From Dehalococcoidia bacterium (GTDB lineage Bacteria; Chloroflexota; Dehalococcoidia; Bin125), in NCBI GenBank assembly GCA_963555985.3, contig OY820591.1, positions 736,001 through 800,000 on the forward strand: DNA of 64,000 nt, read 5' to 3'. Within the stretch, counting starts at the first letter, position 1; every line of letters begins with the position of its first letter. The translations under genes were made by a program, and so were the position numbers. Below the pieces are notes generated by a model that saw nothing but the letters and a program-made list of their open reading frames with translations, had not been told where the DNA came from and ran no database searches. Shown here piece by piece: positions 20,308 to 60,888 of this stretch.

Positions 20308-21660
20308 TCATGGTATGTCCGCATCAAAGTCCATCCCAATCTGACCCCGCTCCCGGAACTCCGCGATCTCCGACTCCGAATAGCCCAGCACCTCCCCATA
20401 CACGTACTCGTTGTCTTCACCCATCGCCACCGGAGCCTTCCGCATCTCCGTCGGCGTCGACTCAAACCGGAAGAACGGGGCATTGAACCGAAACGGGCCG
20501 ATCCCGTCATGCAGCGTCATCGACTGGTTCAGCCCCCGTGCCTGCACGTGCGGATCATCCAGCACTCGCGACGCCTCCAGCACCGGCGCCGCCGGTACGT
20601 CGTGCCCCTGGAGCAGATGCATCAGCGCATAGTCGTCTTGCCCCACCGTCCACTCCGCGATCCGCGCATCCAGCTCAGCCTCCCGCGAGCGCCGCCCAGC
20701 CTCAGTCTCCAGTTCCGCATCCTGCGCCCACTCCGGCTCCCCCATTGCCGCCCGCAGACCGCGCCACTGCGCGTTATCCAGCACCGAGATCGCAATCCAG
20801 CGATCGCCTCCATTCGTGCTGTCGCCACCAGTCTCCGAGCGTGCGGGATAGACTCCATGCGGCGCGTAACCTTCGATCGAGCGATTCCCCATCCGCTCCT
20901 GCACCACTCCGTTGAGCGAGTAGTCCATGAACGCCTGCGCCAGCATCCCTCCGGCGCATTCCGCCTGCGCCAACTCGATCCACTGCCCCTCGCCTGTCCG
21001 TCGGCGATGCCGCAGCGCCGCCATCACCGCAAACGCCGCGTGCGCTCCCGCCACATAATCGCCCGAAAAGATCGACGTGATGTACGACGGATCCAGATCC
21101 GGATAGCCGCGCAGCAAGGTATGCCCCATCACCGACTCCAGGTGCACCCCCAGCGCTCGCGCCTCCCGGTAGGGCCCGTCTGACCCGTAGGCCGGCATCC
21201 GCACTGCGATCAGGTCTGACCGCGACGCCCTCAGAAACTCCGGCCCGATCCCCAGCTTCTCCAGCGTCCCCGCCGCATTGTTCTCCACCAGCGCATCCGA
21301 ACGCGAGACCAGCCGCGCAAAGATCTCCCGCCCCTCCTCAGTCAGCAGGTCCACCGTCATCGAGTGCTTGTTCCGATACTGCTGCACGAAGGTGGGGCAA
21401 TAGTTCCAGGGCCGCGGACCCGGCTCCGAGTTCGGGTAGCCCGTCGCCCAACCCGCCCCTGCCTGGATCGCCGCAGCCGACGGCCGCGCCTGCCCGCCCC
21501 GAGTCATCGGCTGCCAGACGTGAATGTTCTCAACCTTAATCACCTCAGCGCCCAAGTCCGCCAGCAACGTCGTCGCAAACGTCCCCGCCCAGACCACGCA
21601 AAGGTCGATCACCCGAAACCCGTCAAGCGGCGCTGTCATGGCAGGATGTTCGTCGTTCAT
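20308..21660 (-). CDS. Family III CoA-transferase (CaiB/BaiF), Asp-containing subunit
   Basis: PLDGFRVIDL, LADLGAEVIKVE, RNKHS, SGDYVAG. Confidence 0.9.
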   Translation of the reverse strand: MNDEHPAMTAPLDGFRVIDLCVVWAGTFATTLLADLGAEVIKVENIHVWQPMTRGGQARPSAAAIQAGAGWATGYPNSEPGPRPWNYCPTFVQQYRNKHSMTVDLLTEEGREIFARLVSRSDALVENNAAGTLEKLGIGPEFLRASRSDLIAVRMPAYGSDGPYREARALGVHLESVMGHTLLRGYPDLDPSYITSIFSGDYVAGAHAAFAVMAALRHRRRTGEGQWIELAQAECAGGMLAQAFMDYSLNGVVQERMGNRSIEGYAPHGVYPARSETGGDSTNGGDRWIAISVLDNAQWRGLRAAMGEPEWAQDAELETEAGRRSREAELDARIAEWTVGQDDYALMHLLQGHDVPAAPVLEASRVLDDPHVQARGLNQSMTLHDGIGPFRFNAPFFRFESTPTEMRKAPVAMGEDNEYVYGEVLGYSESEIAEFRERGQIGMDFDADIP

Positions 21661-21710
21661 CTGCTCAATCCCCTCTGCCCAATGAAGACTTGCTCGCCAG
21701 TCCAGAATTC

Positions 21711-21767
21711 CGTCATACCCGCGCTTGCCGCCGAGCCTGTCCCCGCGAAGGCGGGGATCACTCGCCG
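21711..21767 (+). repeat. REP-like palindrome, family 1 (GTCATWCCCGCG...GCGGGGATC)
   Basis: Same unit recurs at 23205, 25731, 40255 (inverted), 57410, 59590, 60780. Confidence 0.8.
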
Positions 21768-21852
21768 AGTCGAACGCGGACTTCGAGACCGAAGCCCGGC
21801 AACTCTTCGATCAATCTCGATCGCCGCCGTCTCAGTCTGAGGCCGCCAGCGG

Positions 21853-23067
21853 CTAGCACACCACACCTCGCTGCTTCAGCTCCCCAATCTCCGACTCCCC
21901 AAACCCGCACTCCGACAACACTGCCTCCGTATCCTCCCCCAGCTTCGGCGCCGCGCGCCGCAGACGCCACGGCGACGCCGGCATCACAAACGGACGCCCC
22001 GGAATCTGCACCGACCCCAACTCCTCATGCTCCGACGTCGACCAGAATCCCCGATCGCTGAAATGGCCGTCCTCAAACAGCTCGTCCACGCTGAACAGCG
22101 GTCCGCAGAGCACCTTCGCTTCCCGCGCCTCTGCCCAGATCTCCCGTTTCGTCCGCTCCAATGCCCAGGGCAGGAAGTTCGCGTGGAACTCGTCCACCAA
22201 CTCCGCTTGCAAGCCCACCATCGGTCGCCACCACTTCACATCTTGCAACCACTCAGGCCGCCCCAGCATCTCGTTCAAACGCGGAATCCGAATCCCCGCC
22301 CCCGAAAACTCCACGTACCCGTCCGCGCAGGGATAGACCCCCGCCAGAATCCCCGCGCTCGGCCCAGGCGCGCGCAGCGACCTACGCCCCGCGAACTCCC
22401 AGCCCATCGTCGCCGCGTGCCGCCGATCTACCCCGTTGAACTGGGCATCGGCGAGGGCGAAGTCGACTCGCTGGCCTACGCCCTGCAACTCGGCGGCGAT
22501 CAGCGCCCCGATCGCGGCTGCGGCTGCGGTCGAACCGCACTCCACCAGCGCCGCCGTGCCGTACATCTTCACCGGCTCGCGATCCTGCACCCCAATTGAG
22601 TACATCTCCCCCGCAAAGCCGTAGAGCACGAGGTCGGAGACCTTGAAGTCTCGGTAGGGCGACTCCTGTCCGAAGGGGGCAATCGAGACCAGGGGCAAGT
22701 CGTCGCGCCGCGATTGGATGCGCTCCCAACCGAGCCCCAGCGAGTCCAATCGCCCAGGCGGCAACGCCTCAATCACAATCGAAGCCCGCTCCAGCAGACG
22801 ATCAAAGACCACAGCCGCGCCCTCATGCTCCAGGTCGAGCGCCAGCGAGCGCTTGTTCGTGTTGAAGTAGAAGAACGTCCCCGATCGCTCCAAACCCTCC
22901 ACACCCCCATACCAGGGCCCCACCCGCCGCAGCGAGTCCCCATCCGGCGGCTCAACCTTGATCACCTCAGCCCCAAAGTCAGCAAACAGCTTCGTGCAAT
23001 AAGCCCCAGCAACCCCCTCAGTGAGGTCAAGCACAACAGCCCCGTCAAGCGGTCCAAGCTCGGTCAT
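21853..23067 (-). CDS. Family III CoA-transferase, subunit lacking the catalytic Asp
   Basis: PLDGAVVLDL, FADFGAEVIKVEPPDGD, NTNKRS, YPCADG. Confidence 0.9.
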   Translation of the reverse strand: MTELGPLDGAVVLDLTEGVAGAYCTKLFADFGAEVIKVEPPDGDSLRRVGPWYGGVEGLERSGTFFYFNTNKRSLALDLEHEGAAVVFDRLLERASIVIEALPPGRLDSLGLGWERIQSRRDDLPLVSIAPFGQESPYRDFKVSDLVLYGFAGEMYSIGVQDREPVKMYGTAALVECGSTAAAAAIGALIAAELQGVGQRVDFALADAQFNGVDRRHAATMGWEFAGRRSLRAPGPSAGILAGVYPCADGYVEFSGAGIRIPRLNEMLGRPEWLQDVKWWRPMVGLQAELVDEFHANFLPWALERTKREIWAEAREAKVLCGPLFSVDELFEDGHFSDRGFWSTSEHEELGSVQIPGRPFVMPASPWRLRRAAPKLGEDTEAVLSECGFGESEIGELKQRGVVC

Positions 23068-23204
23068 GGTCAGCCAGTCTAAGGCGAAGCGCGCCTTCCT
23101 CTCCTCCACACCACAAAGAGAGCCACCCCTCCTCTCCAAACCTCCTCCCCCCTCTCCCCAGATCCCCCTTCCCACCTCCGGTCATACCCGCCCCAAACAA
23201 GTTC

Positions 23205-23343
23205 CGTCATACCCGCGCCCCGTCGCGGAGCCTGTCCCCGCGCAGGCGGGGATCACTCGCCGTGACCAGCACCCAACCCCCAAACCCCTTCCTCCCTCTC
23301 CCCCTTGAGGGGGAGATGTCACGAAGTGACAGAGGGGGTGAAA
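23205..23343 (+). repeat. REP family 1 plus family 2 (CCCTCTCCCCCTTGAGGGGGAGATGTCACGAAGTGACAGAGGGGG) hairpins
   Basis: 23294-23348 is identical (55 nt) to the reverse complement of 40066-40120. Confidence 0.85.
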
Positions 23344-23399
23344 ACGCCACAACCCTCAAGAACCCACATGCGCCTTCCGACAACCACGACACACTCCCA

Positions 23400-23470
23400 A
23401 ACTACCCACCCGAACACCCATCCATATAAGATCAAGTGTCCTTCATTGAGCGAGAGAGGAACCCGGACCC
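23400..23470 (+). promoter_or_regulatory. Putative promoter of cassette A with CGAAC half-site
   Basis: CGAACACCCATCCATATAAGATCA, conserved with 39981-40004; TAAGAT -10 at 23427-23432; SD gagagga. Confidence 0.55.
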
Positions 23471-23842
23471 ATGCCCTTCAACTACAGCTACCAGTCCGCC
23501 ATGGCCGGCGTCGGCGAGCTCGCCTTCTCCAAGCGCGAACCCGGCTACGTCCGCGCCCAAGCCTTCGCCATCCTGCGCCGCGAACTCTCCCCGGCCAACC
23601 CCAAGAGCCGCGAGATCCACCACGCGCTCGGCATCGCACCCCACCCCGAACCCGCGCCCCGGCCCAACCATTCCCCCCACCTGCCCGAAGCGCCGCTCAG
23701 TCCTGAGCAGCGGAAGGACTTCCACCTCAACCCGGACGAGTTCTTCGAGGCCTACGAAAAGATCGACGCCATCATGCGCGGCGAAGACGTCCCCCTGAGC
23801 GAGGAGGAAGAAAGCACGGAAGAAGAGGATGAACCACAGTAA
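23471..23842 (+). CDS. Hypothetical acidic-tailed protein, candidate small-terminase-like (cassette A)
   Basis: SD + ATG, C-ending codons, EEEE tail; overlaps terL-like start; weakly similar to 39613-39948. Confidence 0.55.
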   Translation: MPFNYSYQSAMAGVGELAFSKREPGYVRAQAFAILRRELSPANPKSREIHHALGIAPHPEPAPRPNHSPHLPEAPLSPEQRKDFHLNPDEFFEAYEKIDAIMRGEDVPLSEEEESTEEEDEPQ

Positions 23843-24092
23843 TACCCACGCCCCGGAGCGGCTGAACTTAGCGTTCAGCTCCTCCCACGACGCCCGCCGT
23901 TTTTTTCCCACGGACAGACAGCGCGATCTCTATAGCGCAGTCGCTGCCGTGCCCAATCCCGGCCTCGCCTTGGTCGGGTACGGCGGCGCCATGGGCGGCG
24001 GCAAGACCCGCGCCCTGGCCGAACTCGCCCAAGCCCGTGCTCACCTCCCTCACAGTCCCCCTCCCCCCTCTGCGGGGGGAGATGTCACGTAG
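23829..24092 (+). pseudogene. N-terminal stub of phage terminase large subunit-like ATPase
   Basis: FFPTDRQ...LVGYGGAMGGGKTRALAELA resembles the TerL P..Q...YGGAxGGGKT start; frame then runs into a REP hairpin. Confidence 0.65.
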
Positions 24093-24130
24093 AGTCTGCC
24101 CCCGCGAAGGCGGGGGGACAGAGGGGAGCG
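24056..24130 (+). repeat. Composite REP (family 2 shell with family 1 hairpin) closing cassette A
   Basis: cccctctgcgggggagatgtcac...ccccgcgaaggcgggg...acagagggg. Confidence 0.7.
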
Positions 24131-24175
24131 CAACCGGCACAAACGCTCCAACCAGCACAGCCACCCCACAACACT

Positions 24176-25006
24176 TCAAACCCCCAACCCCCGAGCAACC
24201 AACACCCCCAACCCCGCAACCCCGCAATACAACGCAAACGGAACCAAACTCCGACCCCGAACCAACCACAACAACCCCCGAATCGCAATCAGACCGGTGA
24301 GAAACGAGATCACCGCCGCCAGCGCCAACGTCGGCTCATCCACGCCCGCCGACTCCGTCGCCACCGCCCGCACCGCCAACACTCCCGCTCCCGCCAGCGC
24401 CGGAATCGACAACCAGAACGCCCATCGAGTCGACGCCGAACGCCCAAACCCCAGCGACATCCCTGCCGCCATGCACACCCCACTCCGAGAAATCCCAGGC
24501 AAAATCGCCAAACACTGCGCCACTCCGATCGCAAGCGCGTCCAAACCCCTCATCGAGCCCAACTCGCGCGGTCGCCGCAACCGGCGCAGCAACACCTCCG
24601 ATCCCCCGATCAGCGCCGCCGTCGCCAGCAGCAACGCCCCCGCCGTCGTCGGCCCGCGCAACTCGTCCTCAAGCGCCTCATACAGCAGCGCGCCCACGAC
24701 CACGATCGGCATCGTCCCAATCAGCCCCAGCCAAATCAGCCGTCGCGGCCGCAGCCCGTCAACTCGCTCGCCCTCTGGCGAACGCAGCCCGCGCAGCACC
24801 CCCGCGACCTCCCGCCGAAACGCGAACAGAATCGCCGCCAGCGTGCCCAGATGCACCGCGACATCGAAATCCAGCCCCGGATCGTCCCAGCCGAACAGCC
24901 AGCGCGCCAGCGAGAGATGGCCGCTGGACGAGATCGGCAGAAACTCCGTCAACCCCTGCACCACGGCCAGCACGATCACTTCAAGCAGGTTCGATTCAGC
25001 CGACAC
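24176..25006 (-). CDS. uppP: Undecaprenyl-diphosphate phosphatase
   Basis: VQGLTEFLPISSSGH, HLGT, PGISRSG. Confidence 0.93.
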   Translation of the reverse strand: MSAESNLLEVIVLAVVQGLTEFLPISSSGHLSLARWLFGWDDPGLDFDVAVHLGTLAAILFAFRREVAGVLRGLRSPEGERVDGLRPRRLIWLGLIGTMPIVVVGALLYEALEDELRGPTTAGALLLATAALIGGSEVLLRRLRRPRELGSMRGLDALAIGVAQCLAILPGISRSGVCMAAGMSLGFGRSASTRWAFWLSIPALAGAGVLAVRAVATESAGVDEPTLALAAVISFLTGLIAIRGLLWLVRGRSLVPFALYCGVAGLGVLVARGLGV

Positions 25007-38307: not shown

Positions 38308-39342
38308 TCACTTGGGGATGCCGTCGCTCTTGTCGGGATAGTTGCGTTGGCGCAGACCGTGGTCCTCGTCGGAGAGTGGGAACGTCCAGGAGGTGCGCGA
38401 AATCCGCCGCACGAGTTTGGAGAGCACATCGCCCGGCCCCGCCTCAACGAAGAGGGTCGCGCCCTGGGACGCCATCGTCTTGACCGCCTGCTGCCACTGC
38501 ACCGGCGAGCAGAGCGCCTGCGAGAGTTCGTCCGCCAGTTGCTCTTTGGTCAGCATCAGACCGCCGGAGATGTTGCTGACGACCGGCACGACCGGATCGC
38601 GCCAGTTGACCGCCTGGACGGCGTGCTGGAACTGGGTCTGGGCGTCGGCCATGAGGGGGGAGTGGGAGGCGATCGAGATCGGCAGTCTCACGACGCGCCG
38701 CGCCCCATGCTCGTCGGCCAGGCGCATGAGCTTGCGCAGCGGGGCTTCGTCGCCGGAGACGACGGTTTGTCCGGGGCAGTTGTCGTTGGCGACGACGATG
38801 GTGCCCTCATCGCCTGCTTCGCCAACAAGTTTGCGCAGCGCGCGATCGCGCAGGCCGATGATCGAAGCCATCCCGCCGGGGCGGATCGAATCGGCGTCGC
38901 GCATCAGCTCGGCGCGCCGCTTGACCAGGCGGAGGGCGTCGTCGAAGTCGACCGCTCGGGCGGCGAGCATCGCGGTGATCTGGCCCATGCTGTGTCCCGA
39001 GACGACATTGGGTGCGAGCACGCGCCCGGAGGCGGCCCACTTCTCGCGCAGCGCTTCGAGCCAGGCGACGCTGGCGACGAAGATGGCGGGCTGGGAGTGG
39101 GTGGTGTCGTTGAGTTGCTCGGAGGGTCCGTGCTCGATCAGGTGCAGCAGGTCGTAGCCGAGCACCTCATTGGCGCGCTGGAACCAGTGCTCCGCACCGG
39201 GGTAGACGGCGAGCACCTTGCTGGCCATGCCGACTGATTGCGAACCCTGGCCAGGGAAGAGGAGCGCGTACTCCTCATCTGCACTGGCAGGGTCGGTGAA
39301 TGGATCTGTGGTCTCGTCCGTCACCGGACTCTGGCTGGTCAT
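38308..39342 (-). CDS. fabD: Malonyl-CoA:ACP transacylase
   Basis: FPGQGSQ, GHSMG, ANDNCPGQ, ASHSPLM, EAGPG. Confidence 0.93.
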   Translation of the reverse strand: MTSQSPVTDETTDPFTDPASADEEYALLFPGQGSQSVGMASKVLAVYPGAEHWFQRANEVLGYDLLHLIEHGPSEQLNDTTHSQPAIFVASVAWLEALREKWAASGRVLAPNVVSGHSMGQITAMLAARAVDFDDALRLVKRRAELMRDADSIRPGGMASIIGLRDRALRKLVGEAGDEGTIVVANDNCPGQTVVSGDEAPLRKLMRLADEHGARRVVRLPISIASHSPLMADAQTQFQHAVQAVNWRDPVVPVVSNISGGLMLTKEQLADELSQALCSPVQWQQAVKTMASQGATLFVEAGPGDVLSKLVRRISRTSWTFPLSDEDHGLRQRNYPDKSDGIPK

Positions 39343-39443
39343 GTCGGCTCCTTCGGCGGCCTGACCGTGCGCGGACGGCATTGCACCGAGCGCGCGGTAC
39401 CTAATTCTAACCGTGTCTGTGCGTATCGTGGGTGACGTTGGGT

Positions 39444-39629
39444 TCAGGCCCCGCCGTAGCCGAGCAGGTGGAGGCGGTCCGCCTGCTTGGAGGCGGATTT
39501 GGGGGGCACGGCGGAGAATGCCCGGTAGAGCTCGCGTTGCCGATCGGTCGGAAAAAAACGGCGGTCTTGGTGGAGGAGGCGAAAGAGCTCCTCCGTCCGC
39601 CCGGCTGGGGTATTACAAAGGGTCTGCAT
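39444..39629 (-). pseudogene. N-terminal stub of terminase large subunit-like ATPase (cassette B)
   Basis: RRFFPTDRQRELY...LLGYGGA-stop, homologous to 23829-24092; ends inside Walker A. Confidence 0.6.
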
Positions 39630-39948
39630 CCTCTTCGCCGCCTTCCTCTTCGTCATCCTCCGAGGGAAGCTCGCCGCCGCGCTGGAGGATGCGCACTTTC
39701 TGGATGTTGGTGAGCTTCTTCTTCTTGGGTTTGCCGTTCGTCTCCGGTTCGCCGAGGATCGGCTCGGCCAGGCGCTTGGCCAGGTCCTTGGTCTGGTCGT
39801 AGAGGCCGAGGATGCGGGCGAGCGCGTTGGTCGCCTGGTGCTGGATGTAGGGGGGTCCGTTGTTGGCCTGGTGCTGGAGCTTGGCGACGACGGCCTTGGG
39901 CGAGAAGGGGAGGGGCGGGTTGTAGATGGCGCTGGGGCAGGCGGTCAT
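39613..39948 (-). CDS. Hypothetical acidic-tailed protein, candidate small-terminase-like (cassette B)
   Basis: SD aaagga + ATG 39948; ALARILGLY segment; EDDEEEGGEED tail overlapping the stub start. Confidence 0.55.
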   Translation of the reverse strand: MTACPSAIYNPPLPFSPKAVVAKLQHQANNGPPYIQHQATNALARILGLYDQTKDLAKRLAEPILGEPETNGKPKKKKLTNIQKVRILQRGGELPSEDDEEEGGEEDADPL

Positions 39949-39980
39949 GGGGTGTCCTTTCTTGGAGGTTCTCGGACTGA

Positions 39981-40012
39981 TGATCTTATATGGATGAATG
40001 TTCGATTGGCAA
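39981..40012 (-). promoter_or_regulatory. Putative sigma70 promoter of cassette B with degenerate SOS-like box
   Basis: TTGCCA-N18-TAAGAT on minus strand with CGAACATTCATCC in the spacer. Confidence 0.55.
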
Positions 40013-40065
40013 GTTGGGGGTGTGTTGTGGTTGTCGGAAGGCGCATGTGGGTTCTGTTGGGTTGC

Positions 40066-40313
40066 GGCGTTTTCACCCCCTCTGTCACTTCGTGACATCT
40101 CCCCCTCAAGGGGGAGAGGGGGGAAGGGGAGAGGAGAGTTGTTGGGCGGCGTTTGTGCTGGTTGGGGGCGTTTCACCCCCTCTGCCCCTTCGGGGCATCT
40201 CCCCCTCAAGGGGGAGATTTTGGGGGAGGTGGGGTTTGGGGGTTGGTAGTCGTCATGGCGAGTGATCCCCGCCTTCGCGGGGACAGGCTCCGCGACGGAG
40301 CGCGGGTATGACG
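40066..40313 (-). repeat. REP cluster: two family 2 units plus one family 1 unit
   Basis: Inverted near-copy of 23205-23348 with an extra family 2 hairpin. Confidence 0.85.
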
Positions 40314-40346
40314 GAGCTTGTTGTGGAGGGATGGCGCGCGGGTCTG

Positions 40347-42922: not shown

Positions 42923-45478
42923 TCAGTAGACGACCTGCTCGATCAGCAGATCGACGTAGCGCTCATCGTCGATCCCGAACTCGCCCTTGAGGATTTCTTC
43001 GGAGTGTTCGCCCAACTCCGGCGACGGTCTCGTTCCCAAACGCGCGCCGTTCCAGGTGAACGGCTGGTGCTGAATGATGAAGGGGATGTCGCCGCGCTTG
43101 AAGCGGAAGAAGAGTCCGGCGGCGCCGGTATCGGTTTCGGCGAGGTCGCCAGCCGTCTCTGCGGGCGCGGCGGGAATGCCGCGCGCCTGAAGCTTGGCGC
43201 TCGCGGCCCAGACGTCTTGGGCGGCGGACCAGCTTGAGACGGCGGCGTCCAGCTCGTCCTCGACGGCTTTGCGGCCGGCCAGGCTGAGCAGCTCGGGCCG
43301 GGCGGCGAGATCGTCGCGGCCGATGATTTCGCAGAGCGCTCGCCATTCGGCGCGGTTGCGAACCGCAATCGCCAACCAGCGGTCATCGCCCGCAGCCGGG
43401 AAGAGACCGTGGGGCGCGTACTCGTTCGAGCGGTTGCCGATGCGGGGGGCGTCGACGCCGTTGAGGAGCGCGTCCATCAGTTCGTGGTCGAGCAGGTGGA
43501 CGGCGGCTTCGTATTGGGCGATCTCGATCTCCTGGCCTTCGCCGGTGCGCTCGCGGTGGATCAGGGCGGCGATGATCTGGGAGGCGGCAATCGGCGCGAG
43601 GGTGAAGTCGGTGTGCAGCGAGCCCAGGCCGATCGGGGCGCGGTCGGGCGGGCCGGTGTGTCCGGCGACGCCGGACATGGCGGTCACGCCGTTGCCGATG
43701 CCGCGATAGGCCTTCTTCGGCCCGAACGTGCCCATCACCGGGAACGATGTGTAGATGATGTCGGGCTTGATCGCTCGCAGTTCGTCGTAGGTGAGGCCGA
43801 ACTTCTCCATCGCGCCCGGGGCGAAGTTGTTGGTCACGATGTCGAAGTGGGGCAGCATTTCGAGTGCGAGTGCGCGCGCTTTGGGGTGGTGGAGGTTGAG
43901 CGTGAGGCTGCGCTTGTCGGTGTTGGTGTCGTTGAAGAAGGCGCCGGTATCGATCGTGAAGCCGCGCGGCGGGTGGCAGAACTCACGCACGGTGTCGAGG
44001 CCGGAGGCCGATTCGATCTTGACCACATCGGCGCCGAGATTCGCCAGCATCTCGGTGATCAGCGGCCCCGCTGCCATCCAGCAGAAGTCGAGCACGCGCA
44101 CGCCGGCGAGCGGGAGGCCGGACTCAGGCGCCGGGTCCAGCGTGAGCGGGGCGCGTGCGGCGGGCTGAACGCTTGCGCTTGGCTTCTCACCGCGGACCAG
44201 ACCGAGGTCAATCAGCGCACTGATTTCGTTCGCGGAGCAACCGGCGAGGTCTCGCAGGGCGGCTGCCGAATGCTGTCCGAGCGCGGGAGCGGGGCGTGGG
44301 TTGTGGGGCAGCGCGGTGGAGCGGTAGGGAGTGCGCGGCAGCGGCAGGGTTCGTTCGAGCGCGGGATGCTCGACTTGGGGGAAGAATCCGCGTGCGTGCA
44401 GATGCTCCTCGTTGGCGATATCGAGGGCGGTTTGGACGGGGAGGCCAAGATCGCCGTTGGCCTGAGCGCGCCGGATGAGCTCGGCGCGGGGTTGCGCGGC
44501 GCAGAAGCGCTCGGTGAATTCTTGCATCTCGTCGCGGTGCGCGACGCGGTACATCAGGTCCGTCCAGGGTTCATGCAAGAGCTGATCGTCGCCGGTGACC
44601 TCGGCGTACCACTCGGGGAAGTCCTTCCAGGTGGTGTTGGTGGGCGATTGCAGGTAGGTGACCCAGAGGTCGTCGGAGGTGCGGTAGGTGGTTCCCGGGG
44701 TGTCGATGAAGACGATTTCGCCGTCCTCGAAACTGCCCCGCTCGAATGAGCCGGCTCCGGTACCGACGACGGGATAGCGCAGGCCGCCGGTTCCGGTGCG
44801 TTCGGCGACCATGCCGTGCCAGAGGTAGAGGTTCGGATTGGCGGCCTGGATGATCGTGGAGGCGACCGCTTCCTGGAGGCTGATCGTGGCGTGGACCGAA
44901 GCGCCGCCGCGCGCCTGCTGGAAGATGCTAGAGACGCTCGCAACCGTGGCCAGATATGAGGCTTGCTTGTAGCCCAACTTGCCGACGGGATAGTCGGGCG
45001 ACAGGTCGGGAAAGCCGTTGCAGACGAGCTGGCTGCCGGCGGCCATGGCGATCAGGTCGGTGGCTTGCTGTTGCGGGTGTTCGCGGCGGAAGACGACATC
45101 GATCAAGCTCGGGCCGCTGCCGCTCGCGGCGCGTTGCCCGAGTCCGGCGAAGAAATCGCGCGCGACCTCGTGCTGCTCGATCGGCGCGATGATGATGTCC
45201 GCCGAATTGCTCATCTGCTCGATCAGCTCCCACGCCGCCGGGTCGGACAGGTCGAGCGCGAGCGACTCCTTGCCCTGGTTGTAGAGCAAGTGTCGGAGGG
45301 CGCGCTCGTTGCCGGGCGTTCCGTCGAGCCAGGGTCCGGTGCGGCGGATGTAGTCGCCGGTGGCGGATTCGATCCGGATGACGCGAGCGCCCAGATCTAC
45401 GAGATAGCGTCCGGCGATGATCAGCGGCTCGTCGGAGAGGTCGAGGACGGTTGCGCCGTCGAGGGGTGGGGTGGTCAT
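42923..45478 (-). CDS. Fused double family III CoA-transferase
   Basis: Two CaiB/BaiF repeats: PLDGATVLDL...NQGKES and PLAGVRVLDF...NTDKRS. Confidence 0.9.
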   Translation of the reverse strand: MTTPPLDGATVLDLSDEPLIIAGRYLVDLGARVIRIESATGDYIRRTGPWLDGTPGNERALRHLLYNQGKESLALDLSDPAAWELIEQMSNSADIIIAPIEQHEVARDFFAGLGQRAASGSGPSLIDVVFRREHPQQQATDLIAMAAGSQLVCNGFPDLSPDYPVGKLGYKQASYLATVASVSSIFQQARGGASVHATISLQEAVASTIIQAANPNLYLWHGMVAERTGTGGLRYPVVGTGAGSFERGSFEDGEIVFIDTPGTTYRTSDDLWVTYLQSPTNTTWKDFPEWYAEVTGDDQLLHEPWTDLMYRVAHRDEMQEFTERFCAAQPRAELIRRAQANGDLGLPVQTALDIANEEHLHARGFFPQVEHPALERTLPLPRTPYRSTALPHNPRPAPALGQHSAAALRDLAGCSANEISALIDLGLVRGEKPSASVQPAARAPLTLDPAPESGLPLAGVRVLDFCWMAAGPLITEMLANLGADVVKIESASGLDTVREFCHPPRGFTIDTGAFFNDTNTDKRSLTLNLHHPKARALALEMLPHFDIVTNNFAPGAMEKFGLTYDELRAIKPDIIYTSFPVMGTFGPKKAYRGIGNGVTAMSGVAGHTGPPDRAPIGLGSLHTDFTLAPIAASQIIAALIHRERTGEGQEIEIAQYEAAVHLLDHELMDALLNGVDAPRIGNRSNEYAPHGLFPAAGDDRWLAIAVRNRAEWRALCEIIGRDDLAARPELLSLAGRKAVEDELDAAVSSWSAAQDVWAASAKLQARGIPAAPAETAGDLAETDTGAAGLFFRFKRGDIPFIIQHQPFTWNGARLGTRPSPELGEHSEEILKGEFGIDDERYVDLLIEQVVY

Positions 45479-45532
45479 GGTTGGCTCCGGGCGGGGTTGG
45501 GTGTTGGGGGGTGGTTCCGTGCTGTGGGGGCA

Positions 45533-45586
45533 CCCCCCTCTGTCCCTACGGGACATCTCCCCCCGCAAGGGGGGGAGAGGGGAGAG
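45533..45586 (-). repeat. REP family 2 copy
   Basis: cccctctgtccctacgggacatctccccccgcaaggggggagagggg. Confidence 0.75.
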
Positions 45587-46657: not shown

Positions 46658-46823
46658 GAAGGGCTTTGCCAACGTCCATCTCTGTGCATTGGGGGCTCAG
46701 AGAAGCGGATCGTGCAATGTGAGGTCGGTGGTACGACCAGATTGGGAGTGATTTCACACTTGGTTGCTTCGAGATTCCCGCCTGCGCGGGAATGACGGAA
46801 ATGGGGATTTTGCAGAGGTCTCC
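46658..46823. mobile_element. MITE with IS5/IS1106-like ends carrying a REP hairpin
   Basis: Right end ggattttgcagaggtctcc, degenerate left end, ctata on both flanks; body homologous to 59433-59590. Confidence 0.6.
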
Positions 46824-54059: not shown

Positions 54060-55280
54060 CTAGCTCAACGCGCCGGAGGCGGCGAGGGCTGCGATCTCCC
54101 CGTCGCTTAGACCCAGGACTTCGCGCAGGATGAGCTCGTTGTGTTCGCCGTACTGAGGGGCGGGACGCTCGGGTTGTGCGGGCGTGTCGGAGAGGATGTA
54201 GCGGGGGGCTTCGACGACGGTTTCGCCGTGGAGGGCGTGGGGGAGGCGGCGGAAGTGGTTGCGGTGGGCGAGCTGTGGGTCGTTGGCGGCGTCTTCGGTG
54301 GTAGAGAGTTCGTGCGCCGAGATCGCCAATGCTTGCAACTCCGACTCGACTGCTTTCGCGCTGTGTTGCAGCGTCCAGTTCGATACGTTCCGGTCCAACT
54401 CGCGGCGTTGTTGTAAGCGCTCGTCCAGGGTCATGTCCGGTGAGGCTGCAATGATTGGGGCGAACTTTCGCCATTGATCATCGTTCGAGATGGCAATCGC
54501 CACCCAAGACTCACTCCGGCCTGCGGGGGGAGCGCAGGGATAGACGCCGTGCGGCGCCATCTGGGGGTCGTCGTTGCCGCGCCGTTCGAGGGCGGGGCCG
54601 CCGTTCATGTGGTCGATCAGCGCGGGCGCGAGCAGTTGCAGGGTGCACTCGGCTTGGGCCTGATCGATGAAGACGCCTTGGCCGGTGCGCCGGCGGTGAT
54701 CGAGCGCGGCCAGCAGCGCAGTGAGCGCGAAACGTGGGGCGGGATAGTCGGTGTAGGGACCGAACGGACCCGCCGGCGCGCGATCGGGCCAGCCGGTGAG
54801 GTATTGGACGCCGGCCATGCCCGCGCCCTGGCTGCCGAAGCCGCTGACCTGGTTGTAGGGGCCGGTCTGACCGAGCAGGGTGCTGCTGAGCATGATCAGG
54901 TCGGGCTTGAGCTGGCGCAGATGCTCATAGTCAAGCTGCCAGCGCGCGAGCACGCCGGCCGTGAAGGACTCGCAGACGATATCGGCCCAGAGCGCGAGTT
55001 TGCGGAAGATGTCTTGCGCTTCGGGGATGCGCAGGTCGAGCGTCAGCCCCCATTTGCCCGCGTTGACGTTGCCGTACAGACCGGAGTTCTCCACGCCCGG
55101 CTCGTCGCGGTGGAACGGCCCCACCACACGGGCGGTATCGACGCGGCTGGGCGATTCGACCCGGATTACGGTTGCGCCGTAGTCGGCCATTGCGCGGCCC
55201 ACGGTCGGCCCGGCCACGATCCAACTCAGATCGAGGATCTTGACGCCGGCGAGCGGTCCCGTGCCTGTGGGGAGCGTCAT
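54060..55280 (-). CDS. Family III CoA-transferase, Asp-containing subunit
   Basis: PLAGVKILDLSW, NAGKW, PYTDY, APHGVYPC; true start MTLPTG overlaps upstream stop. Confidence 0.9.
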   Translation of the reverse strand: MTLPTGTGPLAGVKILDLSWIVAGPTVGRAMADYGATVIRVESPSRVDTARVVGPFHRDEPGVENSGLYGNVNAGKWGLTLDLRIPEAQDIFRKLALWADIVCESFTAGVLARWQLDYEHLRQLKPDLIMLSSTLLGQTGPYNQVSGFGSQGAGMAGVQYLTGWPDRAPAGPFGPYTDYPAPRFALTALLAALDHRRRTGQGVFIDQAQAECTLQLLAPALIDHMNGGPALERRGNDDPQMAPHGVYPCAPPAGRSESWVAIAISNDDQWRKFAPIIAASPDMTLDERLQQRRELDRNVSNWTLQHSAKAVESELQALAISAHELSTTEDAANDPQLAHRNHFRRLPHALHGETVVEAPRYILSDTPAQPERPAPQYGEHNELILREVLGLSDGEIAALAASGALS

Positions 55281-56515
55281 AGCACGCCCTCCGTCTCCAA
55301 CTCGCGGAGCTCGCCGCCGGATAGACCGAGCTCGGCGTAGAGCTCGTTGTTGTGCTGTCCGATCGTGGGCGGCGGGCGGCGGTTGTAGCCGAAGCGTTCG
55401 CCGTCGATGAAGATGTTCAGGGGCGGCCCTGGATAGGTGATGGCGCGGCCGTCCGAGTGCTCGATTTGCCGCCAGAAGTTGCGCGCTTCGAGTTGCTTGC
55501 TCTGGGCGAGGTCGACGATAGTCAGGACGGGCACGAGCAAGAGGTCGTATTCGATTGAGATGTTGAGCATTTCCTGTTTCGTTCTGGTTGCGACCTGTTC
55601 GCGCATGGCCTGTTGGACGCGGGGAAACAGTTCCGGATCGGCGTCGCCGGAGAGGGCGCGCTCGGCGTAGGTGACGAAGTTCTCTTCGAGCAAGCTGGTG
55701 TCCATCGCACCGGTGTCCACCAGCCACTGAGCCGCGTGGTTGGCGAAGTGCCCGACCGCCGGTCCGGGCGCCATCATCAGGACGATGTGGCCGTTGGTCA
55801 CATCGGCCGTGCCGCGAATGCTCTGGCCGCGAATCTTGACGCCGCCGCCGTAGCGCTCGGGGTCGACCGCGCCGAGTTGATAGGCGAGGACTTGAGAGAG
55901 GGTCGCCTGGGCTGCGGAAACCTGGGCGGAGACATCGACATGTTGCCCCTGTCCGGTTTGGTGACGGGCGTGGAGCGCGAGCATCGCGCCGCCGGCCGCA
56001 TCGGCGGCGGCGTGTCCCCAGGCTTGGGGCTGGGAGACGCGCACGGGCGCGCGGTCGTCGTCGCCGGTCATCAGCAGCGGCGTACCGGCGGCCCAGATTG
56101 CGAGGTCGGAGCCGACGTAGTGCGCCTTGGGTCCGGTCTGGCCGAAGGCGGAGATCGAGGCGTAGATCAGGTTGGGGTTCCGCGCGTGGAGGGTCTCGTA
56201 GTCGAGACCGAGCGCGGCCATGCGGCCGACATCGGACGATTCGAGCAGGAAGTCGGCGCTCTCGGCCAGGCGCAGCAGCAGTTCGCGTCCGCGCTCGTCG
56301 TCGAGGTTGCAGGTGATGCCGCGCTTGCCTCGGGTGTAGGCGGCCCAATAGGTGGACTCGTGCGGAGGTTGGGCGAAGAAGGGGGCGACTGCGCGCGCTG
56401 AAGAGCCGACGGGCGGTTCGACCTGGATCACGTCTGCGCCGAGGTCGGCGAGCATCTGTCCGGCGAGGAGGCCGCGCTCGTCGGTGAGGTCGAGGACTCG
56501 GTAGGGAGAGAGCAT
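55277..56515 (-). CDS. Family III CoA-transferase, subunit lacking the catalytic Asp
   Basis: LSPYRVLDLTD, LADLGADVI.VEPP, RGKR, GQGQHVDVS. Confidence 0.9.
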   Translation of the reverse strand: MLSPYRVLDLTDERGLLAGQMLADLGADVIQVEPPVGSSARAVAPFFAQPPHESTYWAAYTRGKRGITCNLDDERGRELLLRLAESADFLLESSDVGRMAALGLDYETLHARNPNLIYASISAFGQTGPKAHYVGSDLAIWAAGTPLLMTGDDDRAPVRVSQPQAWGHAAADAAGGAMLALHARHQTGQGQHVDVSAQVSAAQATLSQVLAYQLGAVDPERYGGGVKIRGQSIRGTADVTNGHIVLMMAPGPAVGHFANHAAQWLVDTGAMDTSLLEENFVTYAERALSGDADPELFPRVQQAMREQVATRTKQEMLNISIEYDLLLVPVLTIVDLAQSKQLEARNFWRQIEHSDGRAITYPGPPLNIFIDGERFGYNRRPPPTIGQHNNELYAELGLSGGELRELETEGVL

Positions 56516-57409: not shown

Positions 57410-57632
57410 CGTCATTCCCGCGCAGGGAGACTTTTGCGTGGATCAAAGATCGTCATACCCGCGCTTGCCGCGGGTATCTCGCCGTGATCTGCACCGTCGT
57501 CGCGCACACGACGAGATTGCCGCGGCGGAGCGCGGCAATGACGGAGAACATCGACTTTCGCAAAGCTCTCCGCAGGCGGGAATCCATGCCCACCAGATAC
57601 GCCTTGTGGATTTCTACCTGTGCGGGAGTGAC
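57410..57632. repeat. REP cluster with nested MITE (57426-57571)
   Basis: gtcattcccgc-GCAG[ggagac...ctctcc]GCAG-gcgggaatcc; 4-bp duplication. Confidence 0.75.
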
Positions 57633-59432: not shown

Positions 59433-59700
59433 TGCAAAAGTCCACTCCAGACGGCCGACGCCTCGGAGGAGCGGATCGCGCGATGTGAAGTTGGCGGTAC
59501 GACCAGATGTGGAGATGGCTTCGGACTTGAGAGATTCGTGATTCCTGCCTGCGCAGGAATGACGAATCTGGGGATTTTGCAAAGGCCTCCGCAGGCGGGG
59601 ATCACTCGCTGTGATCTGCACCGTCGTCGCGCACATGGCGAGATTGCCCCCTGTTCAGGCCAGGGGCAGGCTGTGGCGGAGCGCGGCAATGACGGAGATA
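59433..59700. repeat. MITE/REP composite
   Basis: Homologous to 46658-46823; 59590-59690 repeated directly at 60780-60870. Confidence 0.75.
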
Positions 59701-60620: not shown

Positions 60621-60870
60621 CGTCATTCCAGGGAACGGAGACCTTTGTAAATTGGCATTCCCGCCACTCTCGTCATTCCAGCGAAAGCTGGAATCTCGCC
60701 CGACCAGATAAACCGAACTCCGAACGAGATTCCAGGTCAAGCCTGGAATGACGGAAATGGGAATCTTGCAATGGTCTCCGCAGGCGGGGATCACTCGCCG
60801 TGATCTGCACCGTCGTCGCTCACACGGCGAGCTTGCCCCCTGTTCAGGCCAGGGGCAGGCGGCGGCGGAG
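60621..60870. repeat. REP cluster with MITE (60637-60779)
   Basis: ggagacctttgtaaatt ... aatcttgcaatggtctcc ends enclosing an inverted gtcattccag hairpin pair. Confidence 0.75.
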
Positions 60871-60888
60871 AGCGTTTTCGGCGTCCTG

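Follow-up and report, generated by a model that had tools for sequence, protein, structure and literature searches.

The gene for the large terminase subunit (TerL) is a hallmark by which viruses and prophages are called. Among the described systems closest to the element reported here is the phage terS-terL operon, in which the gene for the small terminase subunit (TerS) lies upstream of terL. The element is a chromosomal cassette of similar build, in which a small open reading frame (ORF) overlaps the start of terL. Two truncated copies, copy A and copy B, lie in a 64,000-nucleotide stretch of a Dehalococcoidia genome, called the window below (C1:736001-800000; the genome, G000, comprises 3.33 Mb on 11 contigs). 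Both loci are very probably decayed members of a conserved family of cassettes with a TerS-like core protein and a TerL, but without capsid genes.

The cassette resembles the phage operon, as represented by the viral contigs L039 and L040, in the overlap of the small gene with the terL start, in a TerL with Q-motif, Walker A and B motifs and an RNase H-like nuclease, and in a core helix motif of the small protein that aligns weakly to TerS. In contrast to the viral loci, where a Terminase_2 TerS is encoded upstream (2e-21 and 1e-24; 77 and 88 bits) and an ORF of 710-735 aa downstream, the cassette is not followed by a portal-size gene, and the genome revealed no capsid or portal. Its small protein passes no TerS profile and is without the DNA-binding part at the N-terminus; the gene encoding it has been multiplied 10-30 fold. 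The TerL is distant from viral ones. An alignment-based scan of IMG/VR gave the TerLs of L039 and L040 as the closest (44% and 42% identity), an IMG/VR scan with a single TerL protein gave no match, and the TerLs of cultured phages are 22-28% identical over 56% of the protein (35 records).

Gene transfer agents (GTAs) are similar in that phage packaging genes are kept by a cell, are under purifying selection and are inherited along host lineages. However, GTAs encode capsid, portal and tail genes, none of which were found here, and are not known to contain dozens of terS-like copies. Phage satellites such as the Staphylococcus aureus pathogenicity islands (SaPI) and phage-inducible chromosomal islands (PICI) use TerS homologues, or small proteins that bind TerS, to block the packaging of a helper phage or to redirect it. 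Satellites blocking phage TerS are described in PMC10884400: a non-viral element there encodes a TerS-type or terminase-binding protein that works only with the capsids of a helper, which is a functional analogy to the present case and no more. Unlike satellites, the cassettes also contain TerL, and no integrase, replication or regulatory module was recognised beside them in lists of their flanking genes, which are unique and host-like and were not profile-scanned.

TERi (TerI) is a prophage-encoded defence of Listeria phages that targets terminases and, according to the preprint, is located in a prophage with self-immunity genes (bioRxiv 10.1101/2025.02.27.640495). It offers a functional analogy solely for the proposal discussed below that the small proteins act as decoys; the cassettes differ in being chromosomal, multi-copy and paired with TerL. 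Some insertion sequences (ISs) of the IS3 and IS110 families insert into repetitive extragenic palindromic (REP) sequences. With such ISs and derivatives resembling miniature inverted-repeat transposable elements, the cassettes share long and short forms, sharp ends, a REP-adjacent position and a variable copy number, but a Y1 transposase, inverted ends and target duplication were not found here, and the short form keeps a selected ORF. To date, a literature search, which covered the main texts of papers available without subscription, has brought up no account of terminase cassettes in Chloroflexota that are orphan or multi-copy.

Intact cassettes and the large terminase subunit

Copy A (23196-24130, forward strand) and copy B (39444-40322, reverse strand) are inverted relative to each other and have a REP-framed leader in common, followed by a small acidic-tailed ORF that overlaps the first 60-67 codons of a terL gene. 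This layout, including the junction gaagaggATG and the inverted second copy, had been described in an earlier note on this DNA, and it was seen as described when the sequence was read directly. The frame of stub A is open from 23829 to 24092 (87 aa), reads ...RRFFPTDRQRDLY...GYGGAMGGGKTRALAELA and continues into a REP, whereas blastn similarity to intact terL stops at C1:760030, window position 24030. The terminase assignment of that note found no backing in the pieces of the window taken alone: the two stubs matched no Pfam family, and neither stubs nor small ORFs gave a terminase profile match on their own. Because the stubs have no profile match of their own, they count as TerL members solely through their 70-78% identity to the N-termini of intact TerLs (stub A, 78% and 70% to proteins of 472-473 aa).

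A search of the genome with the protein of stub A revealed five intact cassettes, each of about 1.9 kb and two genes, as well as further stubs. Thus, the full-length terL that the note had expected elsewhere is present five times, and what it took for a family of stubs is rather a family of cassettes of which the two TerL pieces in the window are very probably decay products. The intact TerLs of this genome, of 472-473 aa, have kept the Walker A, Walker B and nuclease residues, and each gene is preceded by an ORF1-A-like ORF of 118-120 aa that overlaps it by 14 nt. Across relatives, the small protein of intact cassettes has 85-140 aa and TerL 460-520 aa. Intact TerL matches Terminase_6N with 33.3 bits (4.9e-8) and Terminase_3 with 32.1 bits (1e-7), above the Pfam cut-offs of 22 and 23.2 bits respectively, so that a terS-like/terL cassette was correctly recognised as far as full-length relatives are concerned. 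In addition, it matches phrog_2 (1.6e-26), and among solved structures a TerL profile found the large terminases 5oe8 and 5oea (E 6e-12), the acidic residues of the nuclease being aligned.

Among 43 sequences of the family, residues F25, T28, R30 and Q31 of the Q-motif, the Walker A motif GYGGAMGGGKT and the Walker B pair D155-E156 are invariant or nearly so. The same is true of D285, D351 and D429-D435 in the RNase H-like nuclease domain, which is absent from both stubs of the window. The conserved peptide RRFFPTDRQR, which the earlier note had singled out, is therefore, given this Q-motif conservation, the adenine-binding motif ahead of the P-loop. The codon differences reported for it were confirmed: between copies A and B its 13-codon block differs by six synonymous changes (ccc/ccg, acg/acc, gac/gat, aga/cgg, cag/caa and tat/tac) and one change from D to E (gat/gag).

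TerL is truncated in copies A and B and in two more copies. A paralog of stub B at C1:905.5k is six codons longer (..GGGKG) and likewise truncated, and one other stub is frameshifted at a T-run. The end of intact cassettes, ..TAACCCATGCCC, is reached about 9 nt behind the stop codon of terL, and the flanks of the five are unique and differ from one another. The REPs that precede the intact cassette at C1:1690.4k have, about 100 nt upstream, a transfer RNA (tRNA)-like sequence, which by eye is a tRNA-Met whose anticodon loop contains CAT.

The family is widespread among relatives. TerL is present in 45 of 65 genomes of the order, in one to five copies, and by genus in 34 of 37 genomes of g7 (one to four copies), 8 of 9 of g8, both genomes of g3 and none of 16 genomes of six other genera. 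More than 200 database homologues are among the matches listed at E <=0.001. Among the listed clusters, 119 are 55-73% identical and two more (97% and 87%) are the genome's own; the named homologues among the matches listed are from Chloroflexota or Chloroflexi. In a quick tree the copies group by genus, and the cellular clade stands apart from the two viral TerLs with a support of 100. Of four loci examined in g8, three have flanking genes in common. In 34 of 40 relatives' loci (38 distinct loci, two having been fetched twice), the terL start is overlapped or abutted by a small ORF of 85-140 aa. At least three sequence types can be told apart among these small ORFs, with a ..YVR..AL....R / LRAWELLGK..G.F core in common. 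Given the stable presence of this TerL clade as a cellular gene in a Chloroflexota order (45 of 65 genomes), virus calling by marker genes would mislabel such loci.

Judged from codon comparisons, both genes are under purifying selection. Among the five intact TerLs, the four closest copies differ by synonymous divergences (dS) of 0.12-0.19 with ratios of non-synonymous to synonymous divergence (dN/dS) of 0.10-0.16, and against the fifth copy dN/dS is 0.25-0.28. Codons 1-101 are identical in four copies, and 94 later codons vary. For the small ORFs, median pairwise dN/dS was 0.33-0.54 in every dS bin (27 ORFs; 349 of 351 pairs, those with dS = 0 being dropped; dS 0.05-0.6), and the C-terminal part of the protein occurs in four variants that are shuffled between subfamilies. 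The TerS-like ORFs are thus variable, as had been suspected, and mosaic. Contigs C2-C11 are 95-99% identical variants of parts of C1, from a second strain or haplotype, which fits the contamination figure of 7.5%. A comparison of C9 with C1 (at C1:421.4k) showed about 100% identity in flanks and leader, against a difference of about 11% in the ORF1 coding sequence, whose C-terminal segment is swapped. Copies thus continue to exchange sequence by gene conversion, with the small ORF and the 5' portion of terL at its centre.

The small protein and its stand-alone units

A tblastn search with ORF1 located 28 copies in the genome: five with intact terL, two with stubs, 19 stand-alone on C1, one on the strain-variant contig C9 and one degenerate. 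The ORF is open, with 108-126 aa, in 27 of the 28 places, and a family profile counts 30 small ORFs, including two type-B copies. The claim of a multi-copy, REP-framed family was therefore borne out. The sequence type of ORF1-A is nearly confined to this genome, with one outside match (54% identity). Small ORFs also outnumber TerL in many other g7 genomes, e.g. in G046 (29 vs 3), G061 (21 vs 3) and G048 (15 vs 2). G063, a member of g7, has nine small TerS-like ORFs and no TerL at E <=1e-40; the small gene can hence persist without a resident TerL. The parallel multiplication in several genomes of a TerS-like gene without a helix-turn-helix (HTH) makes it testable how cells or elements exploit phage packaging motors.

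The genome has about 20 stand-alone units, each of roughly 540-560 nt and starting directly behind a REP. Each consists of the 5' terminus CCGACAACCAC, a TTGCAA-N17-TATAAA-like box recognised by eye, a Shine-Dalgarno sequence (SD), the ORF and an 87-nt tail, which corresponds by homology to the beginning of terL without its ATG, which has been lost, and stops sharply at ..CTACCGTGCC. Upstream alignments showed the 5' terminus to be common to all 28 units and to the units of G046 and G061. The G061 stand-alone units have the same build (leader start ccgacaacca, ORF, and hairpin with T-run from terL), and the fetched G046 units show parts of it only. The 5' flank is a multi-copy REP with 18-165 genomic matches in 24 of 24 units examined (123-165 for flanks of REP type 1), and the 3' flank of stand-alone units is unique DNA in 16 of 18.

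Terminal inverted repeats were not detected (best local score <=6; none of 24 units above its own shuffles), nor was a consistent target duplication, as a string of 7-8 nt is shared in 4 of 24 units (five rows with the C9 variant), in C-rich sequence. A search of the genome for Y1 transposases, including REP-associated tyrosine transposases (RAYT), found none; other transposase families were not searched. Counts of the 14-nt REP head motif CCGTCATWCCCGCG in 65 genomes were high in g1, g7 and g8, with 292 in this genome and a maximum of about 1500 in one of g8, and as low as 0-2 in 18 genomes of g2, g3, g4, g5, g6, g9 and g10. The genera with REPs and with TerL overlap, but a dependence between REPs and TerL was rejected, as G063 has 118 REPs and no TerL, and G021, G047, G057 and G058 have TerL and no REPs.

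A hairpin of 11-13 bp with a U7 run lies within the first 30 codons of terL in this genome's cassettes. Behind the small ORF of their stand-alone units, G061 has kept both hairpin and T-run, and G000 and G046 have kept the T-run; the stems vary in sequence from copy to copy. As a universal element the hairpin was rejected, being seen in some types and absent from type I cassettes, with z-scores mostly near 0. At copy A, where the hairpin is about 13 nt from the U-run, a terminator scan gave no site on the forward strand.

The small protein is consistently, if weakly, indicated to be the helical core of a TerS without the N-terminal DNA-binding domain. When 22 small ORFs located ahead of TerL homologues were combined in a profile, it had four PDB matches, the best of which was a small terminase (E 0.08, its residues 61-111). 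Similarly, hhalign aligned the family to the viral TerS of L040 with 66% probability (E 5.6e-5, TerS residues 112-153), and the HTH DNA-binding part at the N-terminus of TerS lies outside both alignments. The Terminase_2 profile matched none of five distinct cellular small ORFs at E up to 10. An AlphaFold model has no extra domain; it consists of a confidently modelled helical hairpin (residues 7-39, pLDDT >90), which a disordered linker joins to helices at the C-terminus.

Structure modelling predicts that the small protein binds the N-terminus of TerL. The predicted complex scored 0.65 against 0.00 for the best control; this mark was reached by 58 of 80 solved complexes and by 2 of 110 mismatched pairs. 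Runs agreed in at least 53% of contacts, and the pLDDT of the partner was at least 57. In the predicted interface, residues 87-108 of ORF1, the variable helix, contact TerL residues 6-22, 69-75 and 123-128. When copy A is compared with intact copies, pN/pS is 2.0 and 1.2 for TerL codons 1-24, which encode the helix predicted to bind the small protein (small counts of 3 synonymous and 13-21 non-synonymous changes), and 0.12-0.37 for codons 25-67. Strict co-variation of the C-terminal helix of the small protein with the TerL N-terminus was not seen, since the helices differ between two cassettes whose TerL N-termini are almost alike.

A proposed packaging role in trans and its alternatives

Searches for virion genes returned nothing above threshold in the genome. 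Phage_portal, SPP1_portal and Phage_portal_2 had no match, and Phage_capsid, the HK97 capsid family, reached 18.7 bits against a cut-off of 24.2. When ORFs of at least 80 aa from four viral contigs were compared with the genome, TerL frames were the only matches. In ten relatives' loci of 20 kb, the neighbours looked ordinary and no portal-size gene followed terL, as judged from ORF lists and not from profile scans; likewise, none of the cassette neighbours resembled phage structural genes by size or sequence start, these not having been profile-scanned. The lack of a portal or capsid, which the earlier note had seen in the surroundings of the window copies, thus extends to profile searches of the genome.

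For a selected terminase pair without portal and capsid, no function has been described. It is suggested, tentatively and as a little short of evenly balanced, that the cassette family acts on phage packaging in trans. The small protein would be a TerS core that lost its DNA-binding domain, and its variable C-terminal helix would dock on the variable N-terminal helix and the ATPase lobe of TerL. Because the cell appears to encode neither portal nor capsid, the pair would act only if these came from a phage. Host TerL and the numerous TerS-like proteins without HTH might then engage the procapsids or the terminase of the invader, with the multiplied, recombining copies serving as adaptors or decoys, and the outcome would be either poisoned phage packaging, i.e. 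defence, or diversion of capsids to host DNA. By-eye speculation adds that the hairpin and U7 run behind the small ORF may stop most transcripts before terL; if so, this would explain why the deletion derivatives keep that piece. That one to five TerLs and up to 30 fast-recombining HTH-less TerS-like genes constitute a new anti-phage or capsid-hijacking system derived from a phage motor is a further step, and rather unlikely.

Several results weigh against this proposal. The small ORFs matched nothing in Pfam, PHROG, NCBIfam or PADLOC, and the anti-phage defence models of PADLOC-DB 2.0 gave no family for TerL and three small ORFs. The TerS homology of the small protein is weak: hhalign found no match to the second viral TerS, and Foldseek with the model of the small protein gave no match at E <2.5, the small terminase 6w7t_B ranking 12th at a non-significant E of 6.8. 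The predicted complex could mirror a likeness to solved TerS-TerL pairs. In the Portal_Mu search the control gave no match anywhere, and the viral ORFs of 710-735 aa have no Pfam match; the portal and capsid families of this phage lineage lie outside Pfam, and divergent structural genes could therefore be missed. Furthermore, 15 of the 19 stand-alone units on C1 are followed by a co-directional host gene within about 155 nt of the unit end, and the sharp ends, the REP at every 5' end and the mostly unique 3' DNA are transposition-like and unlike an ordinary host gene family.

The transposition-like features would be accounted for by a selfish, REP-associated mobile or duplicative element with TerL as its own enzyme and the small protein as a DNA or partner adaptor. 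The stand-alone units would then be non-autonomous derivatives in which an internal CCGTGCC, similar to the true end CCATGCC, had become the 3' end, and both 3' ends do finish with CC(G/A)TGCC. The 5' terminus CCGACAACCA recurs in another genus, copy numbers range from 0 to 30 between genomes, truncated copies exist, and no Y1/RAYT transposase was found that could otherwise move the REPs. Such an element is nevertheless improbable, as the 24 units show neither terminal inverted repeats nor a consistent target duplication, and the TerL paralogs are old (dS 0.12-0.31), all intact and selected (dN/dS 0.10-0.28). The TerL tree follows the genera, with flanking genes shared among g8 loci, G063 keeps its small ORFs without TerL, and REP motif and TerL are mutually independent. 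The bolder idea that TerL moves the units itself, as a terminase-derived transposase, is very improbable. Host expression would be served instead if the units were mobile promoter or leader units that provide transcription and translation signals for the downstream host gene, with the small ORF kept open for that purpose as an upstream ORF of incidental terminase ancestry. The co-directional placement of 15 of 19 units, to which copy B adds a position 62 nt upstream of the gene at 38308-39381, the by-eye promoter-like box, and a hairpin and U-run that could act as an attenuator agree with this, yet the placement, compatible with a regulatory or an insertion-bias reading, may just reflect tolerated insertion sites. 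The dN/dS below 1 and the conserved helix predicted to bind TerL argue for a working protein. A scan of copy A (23100-24300) gave no sigma-70-like site, so that the promoter placed there by the earlier note comes down to a TATAAG box at 23425-23430 with a poor -35 element, seen by eye. Overall, the leader role is quite improbable.

A GTA-like or otherwise cryptic particle, whose virion genes lie elsewhere and are too divergent to be recognised, could also own the terminase, with the small-ORF units marking chromosomal packaging starts. As in split GTA clusters, conservation and selection of the pair go along with a lack of structural genes next to it, pac phages have their pac site in or near terS, about 30 units are dispersed over the 3.1-Mb contig, and the portals of related viruses lie outside Pfam, which makes detection weak. 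However, neither the portal families nor the HK97 capsid family rose above cut-off, the non-terminase ORFs of the four related viral contigs have no match in the genome, and the small protein is without the domain by which TerS recognises pac, all of which makes a particle of this kind distinctly improbable. The suggestion of one domesticated GTA-like terminase needs correction: there are five domesticated TerLs and not one, and a GTA-like character is unsupported because structural genes were not found. Plain prophage debris without function for cell or element would suit the two truncated TerL pieces of the window, which cannot work, the stub frameshifted at a T-run and the lack of phage genes around them, but it applies to stubs only. 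For the whole family, debris is contradicted: intact in 45 of 65 genomes, it has invariant catalytic residues and low within-genome dN/dS (0.10-0.28), and 27 of 28 small ORFs are open at dS 0.05-0.6. The features of the two decayed copies are listed in Table 1.

Features of the window

Table 1. Cassette features of copies A and B in the window (positions in nucleotides; D and I numbers denote dispersed-repeat families and inverted-repeat pairs)
Feature	Position	Strand	Remarks
REP-like palindromic repeat type 1 (head ..CCGTCATACCCGCG..), 5' frame of copy A	23196-23287	+	Inverted-repeat pair I2 with 40231-40322, 88%
REP-like repeat type 2 (CCCCCTTGAGGGGGAGATGTCACGAAGTGACAGAGGGGG)	23297-23363	+	Repeats I3, I10; family D4
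Cassette leader, copy A	23377-23470	+	5' terminus CCGACAACCAC at 23377-23387; TATAAG 23425-23430; purine-rich SD ~23453-23459
ORF1-A, 123 aa, TerS-core-like, acidic tail, type III	23471-23842	+	One of 28 paralogs; dN/dS 0.33-0.54
TerL stub A, codons 1-67: N-terminal helix, FFPTDRQR Q-motif, Walker A GYGGAMGGGKT	23829-24032	+	Homology to intact terL ends at about 24032
12-bp hairpin with one bulge (23855-23885), then T7 run (23899-23905) also encoding FF of the Q-motif	23855-23905	+	Fold -27.4 kcal/mol, z -2.6
REP-like repeat, type 2 variant, at truncation point of stub A	24049-24130	+	I9, I11; depth spike in public contigs, as for REPs
5' frame of copy B: REP type 1 (40231-40322), two REP type 2 (40160-40217, 40060-40117)	40060-40322	-	I1, I2, I3, D4
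Leader, copy B, 78-94% identical to leader of copy A	39949-40059	-	I1, I6
ORF1-B, 111 aa, small, acidic-tailed, type II (..NGPPYIQHQATNALARILGLY..)	39613-39948	-	33% identity, E 7e-19, to G018 small ORF upstream of intact TerL
TerL stub B, 61 aa from junction ATG 39629 (70 aa from ATG 39656), cut inside Walker A (..LLGYGGA*)	39444-39629	-	62 nt upstream of the co-directional gene at 38308-39381

The leaders of copies A and B are linked by the repeat pairs I1 (116 nt, 94%), I2 (92 nt, 88%), I3 (67 nt, 82%) and I6 (46 nt, 78%), and the RRFFPTDRQR block by I4 (70 nt, 77%). The small ORFs are far less alike than the earlier note, which treated the two copies as having the same architecture, would suggest: ORF1-A and ORF1-B are 23% identical in alignment, and the blastp match between them consists of the acidic tail only. 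By their sequences they are members of two cassette types. A second copy of ORF1-B, 97% identical, is located at C1:906017-905709. Public contigs from four runs are short and have REP-to-REP joints, e.g. 23288 to 24063; none of those listed spans the truncation point at 24007-24097. An Rfam search of the window gave no family.

The 357-aa gene at 38308-39381, which copy B precedes in the same direction, is presumably fabD-like and heads a run of genes resembling those of fatty-acid synthesis. Paralogous genes at 20308-23175, 42923-45568 and 55277-56515 share the N-terminal motif ..LDG..V(L/I)DL......G....LAD(F/L)GA(E/D)VIKVE.. and are presumably family III CoA-transferases. Synteny of copy A with the single-copy locus of relatives was considered and not established: CoA-transferase genes flank terL in G024 and G018 as well as copy A, but the orientation differs, and the argument is weakened by the several paralogs of this gene family within the window alone.

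A second dispersed repeat family, unrelated to the cassette, is present at 46696-46823, 57469-57584, 59462-59698 and 60745-60874 (D2, D3, D9, D10 and D14; 80-89% identity) and includes a 130-nt pair with a spacing of 1189 nt.

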